A DNA stretch of 64,000 bases from Escherichia coli (GTDB lineage: Bacteria; Pseudomonadota; Gammaproteobacteria; Enterobacterales; Enterobacteriaceae), in the NCBI RefSeq assembly GCF_003018255.1, contig NZ_CP027440.1; one strand, 5' to 3'. Shown piece by piece: positions 3,122-49,289 of the stretch; within the stretch, counting starts at the first letter, position 1; every line of letters begins with the position of its first letter. A model generated the notes under the pieces. That model was not told the origin of the DNA and ran no database searches. It saw only the letters and a list, made by a program, of their open reading frames with translations. The position numbers and the translations under genes were made by a program.

Positions 3122-6134
<3,013 letters not shown>

Positions 6135-6971
6135 ATGACCGTATTACATAGTGTGGATTTTTTTCCGTCTGGTAACGCGTCCGTGGCGATAGAACCCCGG
6201 CTCCCGCAGGCGGATTTTCCTGAACATCATCATGATTTTCATGAAATTGTGATTGTCGAACATGGCACGGGTATTCATGTGTTTAATGGGCAGCCCTATA
6301 CCATCACCGGTGGCACGGTCTGTTTCGTACGCGATCATGATCGGCATCTGTATGAACATACCGATAATCTGTGTCTGACCAATGTGCTGTATCGCTCGCC
6401 GGATCGATTTCAGTTTCTCGCCGGGCTGAATCAGTTGCTGCCACAAGAGCAGGATGGGCAGTATCCGTCTCACTGGCGCGTTAACCACAGCGTGTTGCAG
6501 CAGGTGCGACAGCTGGTTGCACAGATGGAACAGCAGGAAGAGGAAAATGATTTACCCTCGACCGCCAGTCGCGAGATCTTATTTATGCAATTACTGCTCT
6601 TGCTGCGTAAAAGCAGTTTGCAGGAGAACCTGGAAAACAGCGCGTCACGTCTCAACTTGCTTCTGGCCTGGCTGGAGGACCATTTTGCCGATGAGGTGAA
6701 TTGGGATGCCGTGGCGGATCTATTTTCTCTTTCGCTGCGTACGCTACATCGGCAGCTTAAGCAGCAAACGGGACTGACGCCTCAGCGTTACCTGAACCGC
6801 CTGCGACTGATGAAAGCCCGACATCTGCTACGCCACAGCGAGGCCAGCGTTACTGACATCGCCTATCGCTGCGGATTCAGCGACAGTAACCACTTTTCGA
6901 CGCTTTTTCGCCGAGAGTTTAACTGGTCACCGCGTGATATTCGCCAGGGACGGGATGGCTTTCTGCAATAA
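6135..6971 (+). CDS. rhaS: AraC-family transcriptional activator RhaS
   Basis: 278-aa translation [38 protein letters not shown]. Confidence 0.95.
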
Positions 6972-38175: not shown

Positions 38176-40608
38176 ATGAGTGTGATTGCGCAGGCAGGGG
38201 CGAAAGGTCGTCAACTGCATAAATTTGGTGGCAGTAGTCTGGCTGATGTGAAGTGTTATTTGCGTGTCGCGGGCATTATGGCGGAGTACTCTCAGCCTGA
38301 CGATATGATGGTGGTTTCCGCCGCCGGTAGCACCACTAACCAGTTGATTAACTGGTTGAAACTAAGCCAGACCGATCGTCTCTCTGCGCATCAGGTTCAA
38401 CAAACGCTACGTCGTTATCAGTGCGATCTGATTAGCGGCCTGCTACCCGCCGAAGAAGCCGATAGCCTCATTAGCGCCTTTGTCAGCGATCTGGAACGCC
38501 TCGCGGCGCTGCTCGACAGCGGTATTAATGATGCGGTGTATGCGGAAGTGGTGGGCCACGGTGAAGTGTGGTCGGCGCGCCTGATGTCTGCGGTACTTAA
38601 TCAACAAGGGCTGCCAGCGGCCTGGCTTGATGCCCGCGAGTTTTTACGCGCTGAACGCGCCGCGCAGCCGCAGGTTGATGAAGGGCTTTCTTACCCGTTG
38701 CTGCAACAGCTACTGGTACAACATCCGGGCAAACGTCTGGTGGTGACCGGGTTTATCAGCCGTAACAACGCCGGTGAAACGGTGCTGCTGGGGCGTAACG
38801 GTTCCGACTATTCCGCGACACAAATCGGTGCGCTGGCGGGTGTTTCCCGCGTAACCATCTGGAGCGATGTCGCCGGGGTATATAGTGCCGACCCGCGTAA
38901 AGTGAAAGATGCCTGTCTGCTGCCATTGCTGCGTCTTGATGAAGCCAGCGAACTGGCGCGTCTGGCGGCCCCCGTTCTTCACGCCCGTACTTTACAGCCA
39001 GTATCCGGTAGTGAAATCGACCTGCAGCTGCGCTGTAGCTACACGCCGGATCAAGGTTCCACGCGCATTGAACGCGTGCTGGCCTCCGGTACTGGTGCGC
39101 GTATTGTCACCAGCCACGATGATGTCTGTTTGATTGAGTTTCAGGTGCCCGCCAGTCAGGATTTTAAACTGGCGCATAAAGAGATCGACCAAATCCTGAA
39201 ACGTGCTCAGGTGCGCCCACTGGCAGTTGGCGTGCATAACGATCGCCAGTTGCTGCAATTTTGCTACACCTCGGAAGTGGCCGACAGTGCGCTGAAAATC
39301 CTCGACGAAGCAGGATTACCCGGCGAACTGCGTCTGCGTCAGGGGCTGGCGCTGGTGGCGATGGTTGGGGCGGGCGTCACCCGTAACCCGCTGCATTGCC
39401 ACCGCTTCTGGCAGCAACTGAAAGGCCAGCCGGTCGAGTTTACCTGGCAGTCCGATGACGGCATCAGCCTGGTGGCAGTACTGCGCACCGGCCCGACCGA
39501 AAGCCTGATTCAGGGGCTGCATCAGTCCGTCTTCCGCGCAGAAAAACGCATCGGCCTGGTATTGTTCGGTAAGGGAAATATCGGTTCCCGCTGGCTGGAA
39601 CTGTTCGCCCGTGAGCAGAGCACGCTCTCGGCGCGCACCGGCTTTGAATTTGTGCTGGCAGGCGTGGTGGACAGCCGTCGCAGCCTGTTGAGCTATGACG
39701 GGCTGGACGCCAGCCGTGCGCTAGCCTTCTTTAATGATGAAGCCGTCGAACAGGATGAAGAGTCGCTATTCCTGTGGATGCGTGCCCATCCGTATGATGA
39801 TTTAGTTGTGCTGGACGTTACTGCCAGCCAGCAGCTTGCTGATCAGTATCTCGATTTCGCCAGCCACGGTTTCCACGTCATCAGTGCCAACAAACTGGCG
39901 GGAGCGAGCGACAGCAATAAATATCGCCAGATCCACGACGCGTTCGAAAAAACCGGGCGTCACTGGCTGTACAACGCCACCGTCGGCGCAGGTTTGCCGA
40001 TCAACCATACCGTGCGCGATCTGATCGACAGCGGCGACACTATTTTGTCGATCAGCGGGATCTTCTCCGGCACGCTCTCCTGGCTGTTCCTGCAATTCGA
40101 CGGTAGCGTGCCGTTTACTGAACTGGTGGATCAGGCGTGGCAGCAGGGCTTAACTGAACCTGACCCGCGTGATGACCTCTCCGGCAAAGATGTGATGCGC
40201 AAGCTGGTGATTCTGGCGCGTGAAGCGGGTTACAACATTGAACCGGACCAGGTGCGTGTTGAATCACTGGTGCCAACCCATTGCGAAGGTGGAAGCATCG
40301 ACCATTTCTTTGAAAATGGCGATGAACTTAATGAGCAGATGGTACAACGGTTGGAAGCGGCCCGTGAAATGGGGCTGGTGTTGCGCTACGTGGCGCGTTT
40401 CGATGCCAACGGCAAAGCGCGAGTAGGCGTGGAAGCGGTGCGAGAAGACCATCCGCTGGCATCACTACTACCGTGCGATAACGTCTTTGCCATCGAAAGC
40501 CGCTGGTATCGCGATAATCCGTTGGTGATCCGCGGGCCAGGTGCAGGGCGCGACGTCACCGCCGGGGCGATTCAGTCGGATATTAACCGTCTGGCGCAGT
40601 TGTTGTAG
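38176..40608 (+). CDS. metL: bifunctional aspartokinase II / homoserine dehydrogenase II
   Basis: 810-aa translation MSVIAQAGAKGRQLHKFGGSSLADVKCYLRVAGIMAEYS. Confidence 0.97.
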   Translation: MSVIAQAGAKGRQLHKFGGSSLADVKCYLRVAGIMAEYSQPDDMMVVSAAGSTTNQLINWLKLSQTDRLSAHQVQQTLRRYQCDLISGLLPAEEADSLISAFVSDLERLAALLDSGINDAVYAEVVGHGEVWSARLMSAVLNQQGLPAAWLDAREFLRAERAAQPQVDEGLSYPLLQQLLVQHPGKRLVVTGFISRNNAGETVLLGRNGSDYSATQIGALAGVSRVTIWSDVAGVYSADPRKVKDACLLPLLRLDEASELARLAAPVLHARTLQPVSGSEIDLQLRCSYTPDQGSTRIERVLASGTGARIVTSHDDVCLIEFQVPASQDFKLAHKEIDQILKRAQVRPLAVGVHNDRQLLQFCYTSEVADSALKILDEAGLPGELRLRQGLALVAMVGAGVTRNPLHCHRFWQQLKGQPVEFTWQSDDGISLVAVLRTGPTESLIQGLHQSVFRAEKRIGLVLFGKGNIGSRWLELFAREQSTLSARTGFEFVLAGVVDSRRSLLSYDGLDASRALAFFNDEAVEQDEESLFLWMRAHPYDDLVVLDVTASQQLADQYLDFASHGFHVISANKLAGASDSNKYRQIHDAFEKTGRHWLYNATVGAGLPINHTVRDLIDSGDTILSISGIFSGTLSWLFLQFDGSVPFTELVDQAWQQGLTEPDPRDDLSGKDVMRKLVILAREAGYNIEPDQVRVESLVPTHCEGGSIDHFFENGDELNEQMVQRLEAAREMGLVLRYVARFDANGKARVGVEAVREDHPLASLLPCDNVFAIESRWYRDNPLVIRGPGAGRDVTAGAIQSDINRLAQLL

Positions 40609-40619
40609 TGATTATTGAA

Positions 40620-40650
40620 CAAAAGCTGGCAGTTGCCAGCTTTTGTTGTC
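40620..40650 (+). terminator. metL intrinsic terminator
   Basis: caaaagctggca-gt-tgccagcttttg perfect 12-bp stem followed by a T-rich tail. Confidence 0.75.
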
Positions 40651-40824
40651 ACCTCTAAACCACCTCCTGCGGAGGTGGTGATTGATTGTCATTTTGCCTT
40701 TGGTCAGTGCCCCGGTAATAAGGGGGCTTTTGTGTTGAGCGATGAATTCACAGTGTGAATGGTGAAGTTATTTATGACAATTACAAAATGGCATTAAGTA
40801 AAAATATCTAAAACATCACCTGAT

Positions 40825-41685
40825 TTAAAATTGATAACCAATAGTAGTATAGGTTCCCCATCCTGTGTTTTTTAATTCAAATGGACCATCTCCGAAGTTA
40901 ACTTTCTCCCCAGCATTCCATTGTCCACCGTTGTGAAAATAACGTAGTGTAAATGCAAATTTCCAGTGTTCATATAGCAGGGAAAGGATATGGCTTGAAG
41001 CAATAGCATTACTGGTTCGTTTATTATTGTGTGATTTGTCCGCAAGATCGGAGCCAAAATCAAAGTTAGTAAAACTATTGTATACCAATCGCCCTCCGAA
41101 TAAATGGGTAAGAGGAATGCTATATTTTATTTTGAATCGATATCCGTCCCATTCATTTTCATTAGCGGCACCATAGTTTTGCCACTGATACTTGGCGTAT
41201 ATATTGGCAGAAAGCTTAATTGGTAGACCCGTGTCGATATCTGTACCAAGCCCCATATACCATGTACTTTGCCGGGATGACTGGTTGTCACCCATATCAT
41301 AGACATAGTTGTTTGCAATGAACCATTCTTTAAAAGGGCCGAACGCAAGATTTAATCCGGTCAATTTGTCAATGGAAAACCGAGGTTCTATTTCCGTAAA
41401 TAGTGGTGAGCCCTCATCCCAGATCCCAACATCATAGTGACTGCCGACGCCAAAGAATTTTGGTAGATCAACATAACCATAAAAATCAAACCAGTCTTTT
41501 CTTCCTGCTACAGTATATTCAGGGTAGAGGTCGTTAGTCAGTCTTGGGCCAAAGCGAGAGTCTGTGCGACCAATGACATTCAAGCTTTGATGTAACCAGC
41601 TTTCATCAATTTTAATTTCCTGAGCGTTTCCAATGCAAGGTATTAATAGAATGGATAAAGCTATCCCGTGCTTTTTTATACACAT
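40825..41685 (-). CDS. Tsx-family outer-membrane nucleoside-specific channel (Tsx paralog)
   Basis: 286 aa with a signal peptide; shares long blocks with E. coli Tsx as I recall it ([81 protein letters not shown]) and ends in an aromatic residue (GYQF). Confidence 0.85.
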
Positions 41686-41724
41686 AAATATATCTCATTA
41701 TTTATTGTTGATTTAGAGAAAAAT

Positions 41725-41761
41725 AATGCCATTCAGTGAATGAATGGCATTATAATTTTTT
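41725..41761 (-). terminator. intrinsic terminator after nucleotidase paralog A (bidirectional-looking)
   Basis: aatgccattca-gtgaa-tgaatggcatt 11-bp perfect stem flanked by A/T runs on both sides. Confidence 0.6.
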
Positions 41762-41763
41762 TA

Positions 41764-43389
41764 TTATTTGCTAACGTCCACCCGCATTTCATTTACCTGT
41801 GCAGGCGTAATCTTGTGGCCTTTCTTCAAATAATCGATCACGACATCGGACATGTTATTTCCGGCGCGGACCTGAACATTTTTCCCTTCTTTGAATGCCA
41901 GAAAACCATCGCCCCCCAGTGCAAGGAAAGTCGTTGTTGCAACATGGTAAATATTCGTATCAACGATCTCTTCACCATTAATTTTAAAAGATACTATGCG
42001 CTGACCTACTGGTTTCTTCGGGGTATAGCGCATTTCTGCGCCTTTTGACATTTGCAGGATGCCATTGGTAAGCGATGCCCCGTGTTCCAGTAGGTTACGC
42101 AGATCCTTACCGCTGAGATCCATTTCAGTAAGTTCATTCTTGAAGGGGAATGTACTGGTAATGTCGCCAAAGGTAATCGTGCCTGCATTTATATCCGCAC
42201 GTAAGCTGCCGGAGTTTATCAATGCAATCTGTGCAGTCGGTGCAGCGACAAGCATTGCATCGGTAAACAGGTTGCCAAGTTGCGATGACTCACCGTAGGC
42301 ACGAGTTAATGCAATCGATGATTCACCGACTGGTTGGCGTACAAGATCCGCCAGTTTTTTATTCCAGCCATTGATAACTTTTTGTGTGGTTGGATCAGGT
42401 ATCCATTCATCGGCATAAACCGTTTTCAGCTCAAAGCTCTTCACTTTATGAGTACGAGCTGTAGGGTTGACATCAAGGATTAATTTACCAATATCGATAC
42501 CGCCACTGTCAGTCGAAAGGATTAAGGTGTTGCCGACTTTGATTGGTTCTGGCGTTCCGACGTGGGCATGCCCGGTAATCAGAATATCCAATCCTTTCAC
42601 CTTGCTTGCGGTTTGAATATCTTTATCAAGAGCGCGTCTAACATCTGTATTGCCAATGCTGGACTGACGCGCCGGTACGCCTTCATGAACCAGCGCCACG
42701 GTGAGGTCAACCTTATCACGTAACTCATCGATATAATGCTGCAAATACTTCACTTCATCACGTGCTTCAATCCCCTGATTCTTGAGGGTCGCGGAAGATT
42801 TATCAAATCGGTTATTATTGTCATTATCGAGTCCCTGGAGAGAGAGCTCCGAGACCGTGTCATTAAATGCAAATACGCCGTGTAGCCCAACAATACCAAT
42901 CTTGATGCCATCTTTTTCCAGGATGGTGTAGGGCTTGTTCCAGAAGGGTTTCTCACTCTCTTTATGATAAACATTGGCTAATAAAACAGGGAAATTCGCT
43001 TTGCTTAATTGTCGGAGGGCATTATCCCAGCCATGGTCAAACTCATGATTACCGATTGATACTGCGTCAAAAGGCATGGTATTCATAATATCAATTATTG
43101 CTTCGCCCTTTGTCAGGCTACTGATATATGGCCCGGTGAAATAGTCTCCAGCATCAAAATAAAAGGTGGCTTTATTTTTGGCTTTCTCTTGTTTTACTAA
43201 CGTGGATATATTGGCAAAGCCACCAATGTCGCGTTTTCCGTCTGCGACATACGGTACTTTATAGGAATCCACATGAGCGTGAAGATCATTGGTATAAATA
43301 ATCGTGACATCCTGCGCCATAACTGAGGTCGAAAAAATAGTCAGCAATGTTGCGGCAAATAAAGTACGCTGCGCTGTTTTCATTCGCAT
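41764..43389 (-). CDS. UshA/CpdB-family periplasmic metallophosphoesterase / 5'-nucleotidase, paralog A
   Basis: 541 aa; signal peptide ending VMA|QD; calcineurin-like motifs [27 protein letters not shown]; C-terminal 5'-nucleotidase-type region with GGDGF; alternative ATG at 43383. Confidence 0.85.
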   Translation of the reverse strand: MRMKTAQRTLFAATLLTIFSTSVMAQDVTIIYTNDLHAHVDSYKVPYVADGKRDIGGFANISTLVKQEKAKNKATFYFDAGDYFTGPYISSLTKGEAIIDIMNTMPFDAVSIGNHEFDHGWDNALRQLSKANFPVLLANVYHKESEKPFWNKPYTILEKDGIKIGIVGLHGVFAFNDTVSELSLQGLDNDNNNRFDKSSATLKNQGIEARDEVKYLQHYIDELRDKVDLTVALVHEGVPARQSSIGNTDVRRALDKDIQTASKVKGLDILITGHAHVGTPEPIKVGNTLILSTDSGGIDIGKLILDVNPTARTHKVKSFELKTVYADEWIPDPTTQKVINGWNKKLADLVRQPVGESSIALTRAYGESSQLGNLFTDAMLVAAPTAQIALINSGSLRADINAGTITFGDITSTFPFKNELTEMDLSGKDLRNLLEHGASLTNGILQMSKGAEMRYTPKKPVGQRIVSFKINGEEIVDTNIYHVATTTFLALGGDGFLAFKEGKNVQVRAGNNMSDVVIDYLKKGHKITPAQVNEMRVDVSK

Positions 43390-43423
43390 TCCTTGTTAAA
43401 TAAATTGACTGATAAATGAGATT

Positions 43424-44977
43424 TTATTTGGCGACGTCCATGACTCGTTTAGTTAAGTCTGGGGTGACAGGTTTATGATTTTTGAAATAATCGATGATAG
43501 ATTCCGCCGAGGTTGTTCCCGGTATCGTCTTCACATTTTTTCCATTCAAAAATGCTTCAAAACCGTCACCACCACTGGCACAAAAGGAGTGCGTGGCAAT
43601 ACGATATGTTTGATTATCTTCCACGGGTTTGCCGTTAATGGTGAAAGAGATTAACCGTTGGTTGAGGGGTTTTTTGCTGTCATAGACAACCGCAACACTT
43701 TTAGAAACTTGTAACACACCGTTAGTTAGATTGGTTGCATGCGTCATCAATGATTTGAGATCGCGGCCCGTCAAATCCATCTCGATGAGGTCATTATTAA
43801 AGGGGAATGTGCTAATAACATCTCCCAGTGTGATATCGCCTTTAGGAAAATCAGCTCGAATCCCACCGCTATTTTGAAATCCGGCAACGGCATCAGGTGT
43901 TTTTTCCATCATTGCATCAAGAATAAGGTTGCCGGTAGAAGAGGAACTACCATACTCACGTGTTAAAACTACGGGAGAATGGCCGACAACTTCCTGTGTT
44001 ATTTTGTTAAGCTTTGCACTCCATTTATCAATAGTATTTTGAACGATGGTGTCAGGTTTAAATTGATCTGCAAAGATGGTGATTAACTCACCATTATAAC
44101 TGTCAATTTTCTTCGTTTTCGGATTGTAATCAAGCACAAGTTTTCCGATGTTGGTGCCGTATGCATCGGTAGATACAATTAATGTGTTATTAACTTTTAT
44201 TGGTTGCGGTGTTCCGACATGTGCGTGACCGGTAATTAAGACATCAACACCATTCACTTTTTTAGCTGTCTCAATATCTGCCTGTAGTAGCCGCTCCACA
44301 TCTTTACTACCAAAGCTTGATTGACGCGCCGGGACACCTTCGTGAATTAGCAAAACGGTAATGTCGACTTTACCTTTTAATTCTGCAAGTGCTTTATTTA
44401 AATATTTAATTTCGTCTCTGGCTTCTACGCCTTCACGTGCTTTTGCCGCGACTGTATCATAGAAAGCGAATGCGCCATGCAATCCAATCACACCAATCTT
44501 TAAACCATCTTTTTCGATAATGGTCCACGGATGATCCCAAACTGGTTTATTCGTATCGGTGTAGTAGATATTTCCCAGCAGAATGGGGAATTTTGCTTTT
44601 GATAACTGAGACACCATATTGGGCACACCGTGATCGAACTCGTGATTACCAACAGACACCGCATCAAAGGGCATAGTGTTCATGATATCAATAATAGCCT
44701 CACCTTTGGTCAGGGTGCTGATATACGGCCCGGTAAAATAGTCGCCTGCATCAAAGAAAAACACATCTTTGCTTTTTTTCTTCGCTTCATTAACGATGCC
44801 TGAAATATTAGCCATACCACCTATAAGTCTGTTCTTATCAACAGCGATGATTTTTGCTGGATTGACATGTGCGTGAATGTCATTCGTATAATAAATAGTA
44901 ACGTCCTGAGCTAGAACACTGTGAGAAAATATCACGCCGAATATGACTGATAATGTTGTAAATACAGTTTTCATCAT
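43424..44977 (-). CDS. UshA/CpdB-family periplasmic metallophosphoesterase / 5'-nucleotidase, paralog B
   Basis: 517 aa; signal peptide ending VLA|QD; same motif set (YTNDIHAH, FDAGDYF, GNHEFD, ITGHAH, GGDGF); 34-bp gap to paralog A suggests co-transcription. Confidence 0.85.
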   Translation of the reverse strand: MMKTVFTTLSVIFGVIFSHSVLAQDVTIYYTNDIHAHVNPAKIIAVDKNRLIGGMANISGIVNEAKKKSKDVFFFDAGDYFTGPYISTLTKGEAIIDIMNTMPFDAVSVGNHEFDHGVPNMVSQLSKAKFPILLGNIYYTDTNKPVWDHPWTIIEKDGLKIGVIGLHGAFAFYDTVAAKAREGVEARDEIKYLNKALAELKGKVDITVLLIHEGVPARQSSFGSKDVERLLQADIETAKKVNGVDVLITGHAHVGTPQPIKVNNTLIVSTDAYGTNIGKLVLDYNPKTKKIDSYNGELITIFADQFKPDTIVQNTIDKWSAKLNKITQEVVGHSPVVLTREYGSSSSTGNLILDAMMEKTPDAVAGFQNSGGIRADFPKGDITLGDVISTFPFNNDLIEMDLTGRDLKSLMTHATNLTNGVLQVSKSVAVVYDSKKPLNQRLISFTINGKPVEDNQTYRIATHSFCASGGDGFEAFLNGKNVKTIPGTTSAESIIDYFKNHKPVTPDLTKRVMDVAK

Positions 44978-45206
44978 CCCTCCTGGATAGGGTGTGTTAC
45001 ATTTGTTGAATTATTTAAATAAAAGACACATCGTGTCTTATTTTATGTAAGCATAGTTCAGAAAAGTATTGTGTGATCTTAGTAACAAATAATGTTATTA
45101 ATTAAACATTGACCATGATTATATTTCACGGTCATACATTTATATATTTAATTAAATGAAAGGTAGTGTTCTCTCTTAATTTATGGTCGTTTGTCGAGTG
45201 TATTGA

Positions 45207-46331
45207 CTAACAAGATGGAGTGAGCGATTCATTGTATTTTAACGCCAGTGAGGTCAGCATTTGTGTTACGCGACCTGCGGATAATAACGCGCTTTGGGTA
45301 AAGTCGTGTTGGTCTGTCAGCCATGTGATAAAACAACGACTGGTTGCCAGAGAAACATTTGCGCCCCTTTCTAAGCAGGCTCCCGTGAGTAGGCAGACCA
45401 TCTTGCAGTTATTCCCCTGCTCCCAGCGCTGCCACTGATTTTGCCACCAACCATGGTATGTCGTTCCCTTAAAATGCCAGGGCGTATCAGCGTTACTGTC
45501 ACTGATTTCTTCTTCTACGAACCAAAGTTCACCTTGTTGTTGGCGGAACTGATCTGCCCAGGCTGTAATAATTGCGCCTCTTAGAAAACATTCGTGTGAA
45601 ATAATATGCGTTTTGACATCTGGATAGCGGATTTTCAGTATTCTGAAATGCCCGTGTGCCGTGATAACCGGGCGTAGTATGGCTCCCTTACCGTTGCGCT
45701 TGAGTACAGCACTGCCATACTGAATTTCATCGAACTGGCTCCGGCGCAAGAATTGCGCTTCACGCATATCTACCTTCTGCACGATATCGCGATGGTGCAT
45801 AGTTGGTTCTGTGTTGCCCTTGTAACTGTACCGCAGACTGTCTCCTGTCTGATGTTGCGTATAATTCGTGGAGAGATGAAGAATGTTGCCACGAGTGGCG
45901 TCAAGACTGACTAAAACATACAGTTTTTGTACTGCGCTGGCCCCTTGAAAGGGTATGAACAGTTGAACGGTTTCAATGGCCTGGGGATGCGTAATTTCTT
46001 TCTGATACTGTTTAGGCGTCCAGACTTTTTTGCAGTTACGGCATTGAATGCGTTGCGAACCCTGTGGATTGTGACCATAACAAATCATGTCTGTGCCATA
46101 ACATACCGGGCAGAAATGACCCTTCTCCGAGGCCCACGTAGATAAGTGAACTGACAACCAGTCACGAAATTGTTGCTCGTCAAACAACGGCGGGTAACTG
46201 CCACATGCCCGACAGTGCAGTGCCGGATAACCCAGTTTATAGTCTGGCCAACTGTAATCTTCCGATGAGGCCAATCCCAAATTTCGGCAACCGAACGTTT
46301 TACAGGCATTAATCGTAAACAGAGTCGACAT
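45207..46331 (-). CDS. cysteine-rich cytoplasmic protein with transposase-type zinc ribbon (possible IS1/IS1595-like transposase relic or regulator)
   Basis: 374-aa ORF with no signal peptide; Cys pairs at C10/C15 and C40/C43, then CPVCYG...GSQRIQCRNCKKVWTP resembling the CPxC...QRYxCxxCxKxW zinc ribbon of IS1 InsA / IS1595 transposases; assignment is by motif only. Confidence 0.55.
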   Translation of the reverse strand: MSTLFTINACKTFGCRNLGLASSEDYSWPDYKLGYPALHCRACGSYPPLFDEQQFRDWLSVHLSTWASEKGHFCPVCYGTDMICYGHNPQGSQRIQCRNCKKVWTPKQYQKEITHPQAIETVQLFIPFQGASAVQKLYVLVSLDATRGNILHLSTNYTQHQTGDSLRYSYKGNTEPTMHHRDIVQKVDMREAQFLRRSQFDEIQYGSAVLKRNGKGAILRPVITAHGHFRILKIRYPDVKTHIISHECFLRGAIITAWADQFRQQQGELWFVEEEISDSNADTPWHFKGTTYHGWWQNQWQRWEQGNNCKMVCLLTGACLERGANVSLATSRCFITWLTDQHDFTQSALLSAGRVTQMLTSLALKYNESLTPSC

Positions 46332-46463
46332 ATATCACCAACGATTTCACAAGGTCGTTGATTTTGTCCGGCAACTATCCCCTGCAGATGTGATTACTCT
46401 CACATAAATAAGTCTTTCAGAACGTAATGTAGCAATCCTTTATCTCACTGAAAGGGATTGTTT

Positions 46464-48017
46464 ATGAAAATTAAAATACTTGCTGCGGGTATCGCATTAA
46501 CACTGCCGTTCTGGGCTTGCGCTAAAGATGTCACTATTATTTATACCAACGACCTCCATGCGCATGTAGAACCTTATAAAGTGCCGTGGATCGCTGACGG
46601 TAAACGGGATATTGGCGGCTGGGCAAATATCACTACGCTGGTTAAGCAAGAAAAAGCAAAAAATAAAGCGACATGGTTTTTTGATGCGGGCGACTATTTT
46701 ACCGGGCCATATATCAGCAGCCTGACCAAAGGTAAGGCTATTATCGATATTATGAATACTATGCCGTTTGATGCCGTCACGATAGGCAACCATGAATTTG
46801 ACCACGGCTGGGACAACACATTATTACAGTTGAGTCAGGCAAAATTCCCGATTGTGCAGGGCAATGTTTTTTATCAGAACAGCAGTAAATCATTCTGGGA
46901 TAAGCCCTATACCATCATCGAAAAAGACGGTGTGAAAATAGGCGTTATAGGTTTGCACGGTGTATTTGCCTTTAATGACACAGTATCTGCTGCCACGCGA
47001 GTGGGTATTGAGGCGCGTGATGAAATTAAATGGCTACAACGTTATATCGATGAACTTAAAGGCAAGGTTGATTTGACCGTCGCCCTGATCCATGAAGGTG
47101 TTCCGGCCCGCCAGTCCAGTATGGGAGGCACAGATGTGCGTCGCGCGCTGGATAAAGATATTCAGACGGCAAGTCAGGTGAAAGGGCTGGATATTTTGAT
47201 CACCGGACATGCACATGTGGGTACGCCGGAACCGATTAAAGTCGGCAATACGCTCATCCTCTCCACTGACAGCGGCGGGATTGATGTGGGCAAACTGGTT
47301 CTCGACTACAAAGAGAAGCCGCATAATTTTACGGTGAAAAACTTCGAGCTTAAAACCATTTACGCTGACGAGTGGAAGCCCGATCCACAAACGAAACAGG
47401 TGATCGACGGCTGGAATAAAAAGCTTGATGAAGTGGTGCAACAAACGGTGGCGCAATCGCCGGTTGAATTAAAACGTGCCTATGGTGAATCGGCTTCCCT
47501 CGGGAACCTGGCGGCTGACGCTTTACTGGTAGCGGCGGGTAAAAACACCCAATTGGCGTTAACCAACTCTGGCGGCATTCGCAATGAGATCCCCGCAGGG
47601 GCGATCACGATGGGCGGCGTCATCAGTACGTTCCCGTTCCCCAACGAACTGGTGACGATGGAACTCACGGGTAAACAATTACGCAGTCTGATGGAACACG
47701 GCGCAAGTTTAAGCAATGGCGTTTTACAGGTATCGAAAGGCCTGGAAATGAAGTACGACAGCAGCAAGCCGGTTGGTCAGCGGGTAATCACACTGACTCT
47801 GAATGGCAAACCCATTGAAGATGCGACGGTTTATCACATTGCTACTCAGAGTTTCCTTGCTGATGGTGGAGATGGTTTTACCGCCTTTACCGAAGGGAAA
47901 GCGCGTAACACAACGGGCGGTTATTACGTTTATCACGCGGTGGTTGATTACTTCAAAGCGGGCAACACCATTACGGATGAACAGCTCAACGGTATGCGCG
48001 TGAAGGATATCAAATAA
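46464..48017 (+). CDS. UshA/CpdB-family periplasmic metallophosphoesterase / 5'-nucleotidase, paralog C
   Basis: 517 aa from the ATG at 46464 (RBS aaggga; the ORF-track ORF starts at a TTG at 46458); signal peptide ending ACA|KD; motifs [32 protein letters not shown]; closest by eye to paralog A. Confidence 0.85.
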
Positions 48018-48073
48018 AAGTGCGCACTGAATTGACTCAACTGTTTGTTACCCGTTGATTGCGCAGATCCTGT

Positions 48074-48103
48074 ATTCGGCCTACGCGAGGGCGCAGGCCG
48101 AAT
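48074..48103 (+). terminator. stem-loop downstream of paralog C (possible terminator)
   Basis: attcggcct-N12-aggccgaat 9-bp inverted repeat; no strong T-run, so weak. Confidence 0.35.
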
Positions 48104-48326
48104 CAGATGCCTTAGCATCACCATCCGGTGGCAGGACGTTGTTTTTCGAATTAGCCCAGGTGTCGCTGTGTTGTCAGAATATGAGTCAAAACGTGCGAGG
48201 TGGATTGTGCTATAGAGAAATCTTTTATCGCCTCTAATTAAGATGAGTTTTTTTCATCTTCCCTGATTTTTCCTCACCATCATTGGTTATTTTTCGGTTG
48301 ACGCCCTTCGGCTTTTCCTTCATCTT

Positions 48327-48395: not shown

Positions 48396-49289
<894 letters not shown>

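Follow-up and report, generated by a model that had tools for sequence, protein, structure and literature searches.

A putative nucleotide-scavenging module with a transposase-derived candidate regulator between metL and metF of Escherichia coli

The window, i.e., a stretch of 64,000 nucleotides from Escherichia coli contig NZ_CP027440.1 (assembly GCF_003018255.1), carries five intact open reading frames (ORFs) between metL (38176-40608, plus strand) and metF (48399-49289, plus strand). The block was read, with a probability of about 60%, as a periplasmic nucleotide-scavenging module under the control of CRP, in which Znr, an exapted transposase relative, serves as regulator, and which was partly acquired and is partly ancestral. 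In the periplasm, nucleotides would be dephosphorylated by three Sec-exported 5'-nucleotidases (types A, B and C); a second Tsx channel would raise the nucleoside flux across the outer membrane. The core transporters and the deo/udp/cdd enzymes would then import and consume the products. Expression would be driven by cAMP-CRP at two sites, one centred in the 132 bp that separate Znr from nucC and the other, CRP-like, 5' of nucB. Znr would be the dedicated regulator of the module, with its InsA-type ribbon kept and its remodelled RNase H-like core acting as sensor. In the lineage of the window, a segment of ~5.4 kb containing tsx, nucA, nucB and the 3' part of Znr would have recombined in.

Three of the five genes encode two-domain enzymes of the UshA superfamily, i.e., nucA of type A (41764-43383, minus strand, 539 aa from the RefSeq start, with an insertion of ~24 aa), nucB of type B (43424-44974, minus strand, 516 aa) and nucC of type C (46464-48017, plus strand, 517 aa, corresponding to c4898). 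The Pfam domains Metallophos (PF00149) and 5_nucleotid_C (PF02872, E 1e-36 to 3e-37) were found in nucA and nucB. The nucC product was recognized by a sequence match of 1121 bits to PDB 3IVD/3IVE, to which it is ~99% identical, and its four differences are the residues of the CFT073 allele. The UshA residues D41, H43, D84, N116, H117, D120, H217 and H252 are invariant in the three proteins, as are R410, F429, N431, F498 and D504. The first eight belong to the metal and catalytic motifs (DxH, GD, GNHE, H and GHxH) of the N-terminal calcineurin-like metallophosphoesterase domain, with the His-Asp pair of catalysis; the other five, in the C-terminal substrate-binding domain, include Arg410, which binds phosphate, and the two Phe that stack on the base. 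By these domains, residues and the PDB match, the three UshA-like nucleotidases proposed in the first-pass annotation, which was made from the sequence, were confirmed as members of the superfamily.

The three nucleotidases share 54-64% pairwise identity, and 25-28% with K-12 UshA. They scored 152-169 bits on the UshA equivalog NF007109, whose cutoff is 600, and were also far under the equivalog cutoffs for NadN, CpdB and SoxB. Therefore, they were considered a separate branch of the superfamily and not UshA orthologues. Their N-termini appear to be Sec signal peptides ending in VMA/QD, VLA/QD and ACA/KD (AxA sites). Type C is 88-100% identical across genera, type A 85-87%, and type B 71-89%. 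The C. farmeri gene that follows Znr is 89% identical to nucB of the window; for other type-B genes, the value is 71-72%. The ratio of nonsynonymous to synonymous substitution rates (dN/dS) of nucC is 0.02-0.04. The types form three stable orthologous groups, so distinct roles are favoured over recent duplication, and the types probably differ in substrate preference. 5'-Nucleotides are the predicted substrates of all three. Both PDB entries, released in 2009, are titled 'Putative 5'-nucleotidase (c4898) from Escherichia coli', one with uridine and one with cytidine. No paper or kinetics for 3IVD/3IVE was found, and a review of microbial 5'-nucleotidases did not mention the metL-metF locus.

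The tsx-like gene (40825-41685, minus strand, 286 aa) encodes a paralogue of the outer-membrane nucleoside channel. Its product scored 493 bits on NCBIfam NF011686 (cutoff 311) and matched Pfam Channel_Tsx (PF03502) with an E of 4.9e-70, which agrees with the Tsx family assignment made before. It is 65% identical to K-12 Tsx and is predicted to be a second nucleoside-specific Tsx channel. In E. coli K-12, the scavenging set comprises the periplasmic UshA (and CpdB), the outer-membrane Tsx, and control by cAMP-CRP, CytR and DeoR. The block resembles this set in its UshA superfamily enzymes, its Tsx-family channel and a consensus CRP site. It differs in having three clustered nucleotidase paralogues, none a UshA orthologue, in place of one dispersed gene, and in having an adjacent candidate regulator that is transposase-derived and not of the LacI or DeoR type. 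Between nucA and the tsx-like gene, a terminator scan of both strands detected a terminator- or attenuator-like hairpin with a 13-bp stem and a T-run (41723-41753). Another hairpin, GC-rich, lies directly 3' of the tsx-like gene at 40659-40679 (CCACCTCC-N3-GGAGGTGG). It reappears as CACCACCTCCAGAGGAGGTGGTG between two nucleotidase genes of an E. albertii module (locus L009, ~6141-6315), and could represent a short palindromic element moving together with the module.

Znr (45207-46331, minus strand) is a protein of 374 aa in which profiles and an AlphaFold model placed two zinc ribbons and an RNase H-like domain. The ribbons lie at residues 10-43 and 74-100, the second being of the IS1 InsA type, and a transposase-like domain covers residues ~116-370. 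Pfam and NCBIfam matched nothing but a zinc ribbon of the IS1/InsA type (residues 74-105), and this fell short of the curated cutoffs, with 23.2 bits on NF050000 (cutoff 28). In PHROGs, the transposase-type zinc ribbon was likewise found alone, and the PDB sequence search gave only chance zinc-finger matches. Pfam Zn_ribbon_InsA matched 8 of 53 family members at E<=1e-3. The profile of these 53 members was aligned by hhalign to residues 4-85 of IS1 InsA, i.e., zinc ribbon and helix-turn-helix (HTH), with a probability of 96.6% and an E of 6.5e-10. Because no similarity of this profile to IS1 InsB was found by hhalign, the link of Znr to IS1 comes from InsA homology and fold. The name 'zinc-ribbon protein' in the first-pass annotation is right about the ribbon, but hhalign and fold mark the protein as transposase-derived, which that label does not convey.

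The AlphaFold model (AF2) had a pLDDT of 94 and a pTM of 0.93, and an RNase H-like transposase/integrase fold was predicted for the C-terminal domain. E247 is the sole acidic residue conserved throughout the family, so Znr is without a DDE triad. H228 is invariant, and R197, H246, E247, Y168, Y205, W296 and W300 are also conserved. The conserved His/Glu cluster, i.e., H226/H228 and H246/E247, sits at the former active site. Like IS1 InsA/InsAB', Znr thus has a homologous second ribbon, with the HTH as well in distant members, and an RNase H-like transposase/integrase fold. Unlike InsA/InsAB', it has no DDE triad, detectable InsB similarity, HTH or terminal repeats and is not multicopy, and it has an additional N-terminal CxxxxC...CxxC ribbon and fixed synteny with metabolic genes.

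From these features, Znr is predicted to be an exapted, catalytically dead relative of transposases, neither an active nor a decaying insertion sequence. Some databases label its homologues 'IS1 family transposase', and its sole detectable sequence motif is a transposase zinc ribbon, as a functionless IS1-family remnant in decay would also have. Such a remnant is scarcely credible, because selection and synteny contradict it. An intact ORF of comparable length was seen in ~40 loci of at least 12 genera, with a dN/dS of 0.09-0.23, i.e., purifying selection. It is single-copy without terminal inverted repeats, and the Znr-nucC segment occupies one place per genome in 1845 E. coli genomes. Its synteny with nucleotide/nucleoside genes persists down to 25% identity. 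Two of the 1845 Znr-nucC matches were on records labelled plasmid. The family is small, with 123 representatives among 1.84 billion proteins when clustered at 50% identity. FHY3 and FAR1 are eukaryotic transcription factors domesticated from Mutator transposases. Znr is like them in combining a transposase DNA-binding module with an inactivated core under purifying selection and a host function. It is unlike them in being bacterial and unrelated in sequence, and in that its regulatory role is a prediction.

The gene contexts of Znr relatives tie the family to nucleosides. In the ~40 enterobacterial loci with an upstream flank, Znr adjoins a type-C nucleotidase and diverges from it, at several chromosomal sites and with or without B, A and Tsx. 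For distant homologues (25-45% identity), every informative context contains nucleotide/nucleoside genes or a Tsx channel. Homologues diverge from nupC-deoC-deoA-deoB-deoD (P0146, loci L013/L014), from nupC and a udp/deoD-type phosphorylase (P0140, locus L051), and from a nucleotidase (P0123, locus L011). In the Vibrio-type loci L012, L058 and L059, the homologue lies 25-35 bp 3' of a UshA-like nucleotidase of 519-521 aa on the same strand. In the Vibrio-type locus L060, it lies 20 bp 3' of a 519-aa ORF on the same strand, which is probably a nucleotidase. The label 'Vibrio-type' comes from AlphaFold Database annotations of similar proteins. A further homologue is located within a cluster of tsx, sulfatase and radical-SAM maturase genes (P0163, locus L052). 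The metagenome scan for Znr relatives yielded three loci.

Elsewhere on the chromosome, Znr diverges from an operon of type-C, type-B, sometimes an extra B-like copy, Tsx paralogue and type-A genes. The hosts of this arrangement are E. albertii, Enterobacter hormaechei, E. asburiae, E. cloacae, Klebsiella sp., Citrobacter sp. wls619 and a few Escherichia. Since the same complement recurs elsewhere, i.e., in E. albertii, Enterobacter, Klebsiella sp. and Citrobacter, the earlier proposal that the block is one functional module was strengthened. The E. albertii-type second-site module was found in none of the complete E. coli genomes at a coverage of at least 80%. Two Znr modules, i.e., a metL-metF pair and a second-site operon, were seen in the genomes of E. 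coli SCPM-O-B-8794 (L016/L024), Escherichia sp. MOD1-EC7003 (L019/L044) and Citrobacter sp. wls619 (L034/L047). In Enterobacter hormaechei (L005, 9282-10808), an arylsulfotransferase gene adjoins Znr, and the tsx-like/sulfatase/radical-SAM maturase cluster with a Znr homologue (L052, 2519-7628) includes an arylsulfotransferase fragment. These neighbours hint at a link of Znr to sulfated substrates.

Znr and nucC are separated by a divergent control region of 132 bp (46332-46463), which is conserved across genera. The mean column identity is 84% over 8 genera, with 47 invariant columns in an alignment of 39 loci; the Znr protein, by contrast, is 58-80% identical. The gap between Znr and the nucleotidase is ~130-140 bp in every locus checked; Klebsiella has 138 bp, most genera 132-133 bp. 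In the middle of the region, a pattern search found a perfect CRP consensus core, TGTGA-N6-TCACA (46389-46404). The core lies ~65 nt from both start codons and is the sole perfect match in the window; none of the aligned genera departs from it by more than one change. A second, CRP-like site with one mismatch, TGTGA-N6-TAACA on the plus strand, was found 5' of nucB (45072-45087), and comparison of upstream regions placed it in C. farmeri as well. The motif by itself suggests CRP dependence of the block genes. TTACGTTCTGAAA and AAATCGTTGGT are further conserved blocks in the Znr-nucC control region, to which no factor is assigned.

Some other elements were noted in upstream regions. A tentative resemblance between the nucC and nucB promoters, TTTCWGAAC, was rejected as it is not conserved in C. 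farmeri. In the nucB leader, ~40 nt downstream of the CRP-like site, the perfect palindrome AAGACAC-GAT-GTGTCTT (45023-45039) is followed by a T-run. Its placement is operator- or leader-terminator-like, and C. farmeri does not share it. In the Vibrio-type locus L012 (~5318-5353), a LacI-family-like palindrome, TGCAAACGTTTGC, stands beside a CRP-like site, TGTGAGATTACTCAC, 5' of the nucleotidase gene that comes before the Znr homologue. This arrangement resembles control of the CytR/CRP type.

Local regulation was judged the likeliest function of Znr, with roughly even odds, because an InsA-like DNA-binding module, the divergent arrangement and the nucleoside-gene contexts coincide. A wider proposal is more tentative. 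Znr may found a gammaproteobacterial family of transcription factors descended from a domesticated IS1-like transposase. The ribbon, together with the HTH in most members, would bind DNA, and the dead core would sense nucleosides or nucleotides. In Enterobacterales and Vibrionales, the genes under its control would be those for periplasmic nucleotidases, Tsx and NupC and the deo genes.

Several points count against Znr as regulator and against the scavenging module as a whole. A segment of ~50 residues with the HTH is present in distant homologues and is deleted, after the zinc ribbon, in the window Znr and its enterobacterial orthologues, so the DNA-binding capacity of Znr is uncertain. The His/Glu cluster could mean residual or new catalysis, not sensing. 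Comparison of the nucC and nucB promoters revealed no common operator except the CRP-like sites. Beside the Znr start, the inverted repeat CAACGA-N10-TCGTTG varies in one arm without compensation in the 39-locus alignment; because of these changes, it is proven neither as an operator nor as an RNA hairpin. The crystal ligands uridine and cytidine leave the physiological substrates of nucC unestablished. In the searched literature, there were no expression, binding or enzyme data on the five genes.

The first two of these points also bear on another explanation, namely that Znr is an enzyme or nucleic-acid-processing factor. Its core would have been rebuilt around the His/Glu cluster to act on a cytoplasmic nucleoside, nucleotide or nucleic-acid substrate, in step with the nucleotidases. 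The RNase H-like fold would suit such a role, and the conserved residues cluster at the positions of the second D and E of DDE enzymes. The missing HTH agrees with it, and so does the operon-partner-like position of the gene in the Vibrio-type loci, 25-35 bp 3' of the nucleotidase on the same strand. An enzyme is nevertheless considered unlikely. The N-terminus is homologous to IS1 InsA, and InsA is a sequence-specific DNA-binding repressor. Local regulators are typically arranged as Znr is, divergently over a control region that is dense and conserved, and no enzyme family was matched in Pfam, NCBIfam, PHROGs or PADLOC. None of the five block proteins matched the anti-phage defence models of PADLOC.

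The boundaries of the block were mapped by blastn of the K-12 locus against the window. The K-12 alignment ends at 40607 and restarts at 48249, so the whole block (40608-48248) replaces an unrelated 199 bp of K-12. Over the block stretch, the window is 100% identical to E. coli JNE23-011. The ORF coordinates and strands match the five extra genes in the metL-metF interval that had been reported, with four on the minus strand and the third nucleotidase divergent. The edges given before, 40651-48300, were nearly right and are replaced by the mapped junctions. Between the convergent metL and tsx-like genes, a hairpin with a perfect 14-bp stem, i.e., a 100% complementary inverted repeat, lies at 40618-40647 and is likely a bidirectional terminator. 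It had been called the metL terminator. The hairpin does exist, but it falls inside the block and not in the shared core sequence.

The five block genes have a GC content of 0.40-0.48 and a GC content at third codon positions (GC3) of 0.35-0.52, whereas metB, metL, metF and katG have 0.52-0.575 and 0.57-0.63, respectively. The predicted AT-richness of the block relative to its flanks was thereby confirmed; the most AT-rich genes are tsx-like, nucA and nucB. No tRNA was found within 30-56 kb of the window, no Rfam family was matched in a scan of 36-52 kb, and no integrase was present among the window ORFs. Flanking repeats were not found either. This agrees with the earlier statement that integrase, tRNA and insertion sequence boundaries are lacking. 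The block thus shows no integrase, tRNA/att boundary or direct repeats of a classical genomic island, and its right-hand 2.2 kb is probably ancestral.

Over 5426 complete E. coli genomes, all five genes were counted in 658 (12%), including CFT073, UTI89, F11 and E2348/69, and Znr with nucC only in ~1180 (22%), including O25b:H4-ST131 and SMS-3-5. Neither was present in ~3580 (66%), including K-12 and O157. The block was therefore rightly called accessory in E. coli. In the two-gene haplotype, Znr and metL overlap at their 3' ends.

For synteny, metL, metF, nucleotidase, tsx and Znr were mapped on ~44 loci, taken from a scan of one genome per species and from other look-ups. The order metF...nucC<->Znr...metL was found in Escherichia (coli, whittamii and a cryptic clade), many Citrobacter, Pseudocitrobacter, Klebsiella pneumoniae, K. 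oxytoca, K. spallanzanii, Kosakonia, Phytobacter, Superficieibacter, Kluyvera and Salmonella enterica subsp. arizonae. In these genera, nucC is 87-92% identical to that of the window, metL 90-95%, and metF 91-96%. In Pseudocitrobacter, Klebsiella and Kosakonia, as in the two-gene haplotype of E. coli, Znr either overlaps metL or lies directly against it. Most likely, the Znr-nucC pair is ancestral at metL-metF and was lost by K-12-like E. coli. Because the pair shares its site across genera and nucC is about as conserved as metL, the short intergenic region of K-12 would be the derived state.

The left part of the block has another history. The window was compared with the two-gene E. coli strain R11. 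From ~46000 rightward, i.e., over the first ~110 Znr codons, the control region, nucC and metF, identity is 94-100%. It falls to 57-83% over 45244-~46000, and 40608-45243 is absent from the two-gene haplotype. Against the two-gene strain, the synonymous divergence (dS) of Znr is 1.10, and that of the adjacent nucC is 0.088; the N-terminus of Znr is 90% identical to the two-gene allele and its C-terminus 72%. The drop in identity near 46000 and the contrast in dS therefore mark a segment of ~5.4 kb with separate ancestry (40608-46000, right edge approximate). It holds tsx, nucA, nucB and the 3' two-thirds of Znr, which encode the C-terminal domain. The C. farmeri orthologue of nucB occupies the same position downstream of Znr.

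These results bear on the idea that the whole 7.6-kb block is a single genomic island, acquired horizontally by a subset of E. coli; the first-pass annotation had called the block accessory and AT-richer than its flanks. The absence of the block from K-12 and its GC below the flanks would be expected of an island, as would the absence of the most AT-rich genes, tsx, nucA and nucB, from the two-gene haplotype. A single island is nonetheless very improbable, and for 46000-48248 it is contradicted. Znr-nucC stands at the same site in at least 9 genera, with nucC 87-100% identical, and between the E. coli haplotypes nucC and the control region are 94-100% identical, with a sharp drop inside Znr. 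Integrase, tRNA and direct repeats are missing, as stated above. Low GC thus fails as a sign of recent transfer for nucC and Znr, and separate ancestry is limited to 40608-~46000.

The strains with the full block suggest a further explanation, in which the nucleotidases act on the host and not in nutrition. Host signalling would be blunted by the breakdown of extracellular ATP, NAD or cyclic (di)nucleotides, or by the production of adenosine; this would explain an enrichment in extraintestinal pathogenic E. coli (ExPEC). Avian pathogenic strains also carry all five genes, along with CFT073, UTI89, F11 and E2348/69, and the superfamily includes NadN and CD73-like ecto-enzymes. Host interaction was rated improbable, because the N-termini read as ordinary Sec signal peptides with no surface anchor, nucC was crystallised with pyrimidine nucleosides, and the core pair is widespread in non-pathogenic environmental Enterobacteriaceae. 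Catabolism is favoured by the linkage to Tsx and by the CRP sites, and also by the nupC/deo neighbours of Znr family members.

The first-pass annotation had not recognised the locus as described in E. coli, yet earlier descriptions exist. RefSeq annotates the block in the 658 five-gene and ~1180 two-gene complete genomes, the nucC structure was solved in 2009, and a 2026 paper names metL..metF of avian pathogenic E. coli BEN2908 as genomic region GR31, common to model strains of ExPEC and adherent-invasive E. coli (PMC12928451). GR31 coincides with the present locus and its four annotated functions agree; a nucleoside processing and transport system was proposed for it, without experiments in the part of the paper available (PMC12928451). 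In that part, the account covers Tsx and three UshA-like ORFs, and not the 374-aa protein, the control region, the haplotype with two genes or the ancestry of the Znr-nucC pair (PMC12928451). Literature searches with the locus tags c4894-c4898, STM4102-4104 and VC2353, and on domesticated-transposase nucleoside regulators, returned nothing relevant. The Znr family, tied to nucleoside metabolism and a CRP-centred control region and with no published function found, is a new lead.

The metL-metF locus of K-12 gives a reduced picture. In its ancestral enterobacterial form, the interval would have housed a nucleotidase gene together with its partner; the pair survives in a third of E. coli, including the major extraintestinal lineages ST131, ST95 and ST73. 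The extra two nucleotidase types and the second Tsx of some lineages may affect growth on nucleic-acid breakdown products in gut or urine. With these additions, the uptake of drugs that are nucleoside analogues may change as well, and so may sensitivity to Tsx-dependent phages and colicins. The Znr family provides a testable bacterial case of a transposase become host factor, with a tight link to nucleoside metabolism.

Other variants of the interval were observed. The 199 bp of K-12 (L003, 1709-1907) contain a palindrome like repetitive extragenic palindromic elements, GCCGGATTAAGCG...GAATCCGGC, and an annotated hypothetical ORF of 44 aa; this segment may be the scar of block loss. In S. enterica subsp. 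arizonae (L049, 8001-8726), the match covers only Znr residues 126-367, beside an intact nucC, and this Znr may be a truncated gene or pseudogene. In Citrobacter and Pseudocitrobacter, the interval holds an extra LysR-family regulator and a gene of the carboxymuconolactone-decarboxylase family (L004, 4897-6272; L007, 4880-6252; L010, 11254-12608). The metL-metF interval is therefore a site of recurrent gene gain and loss.

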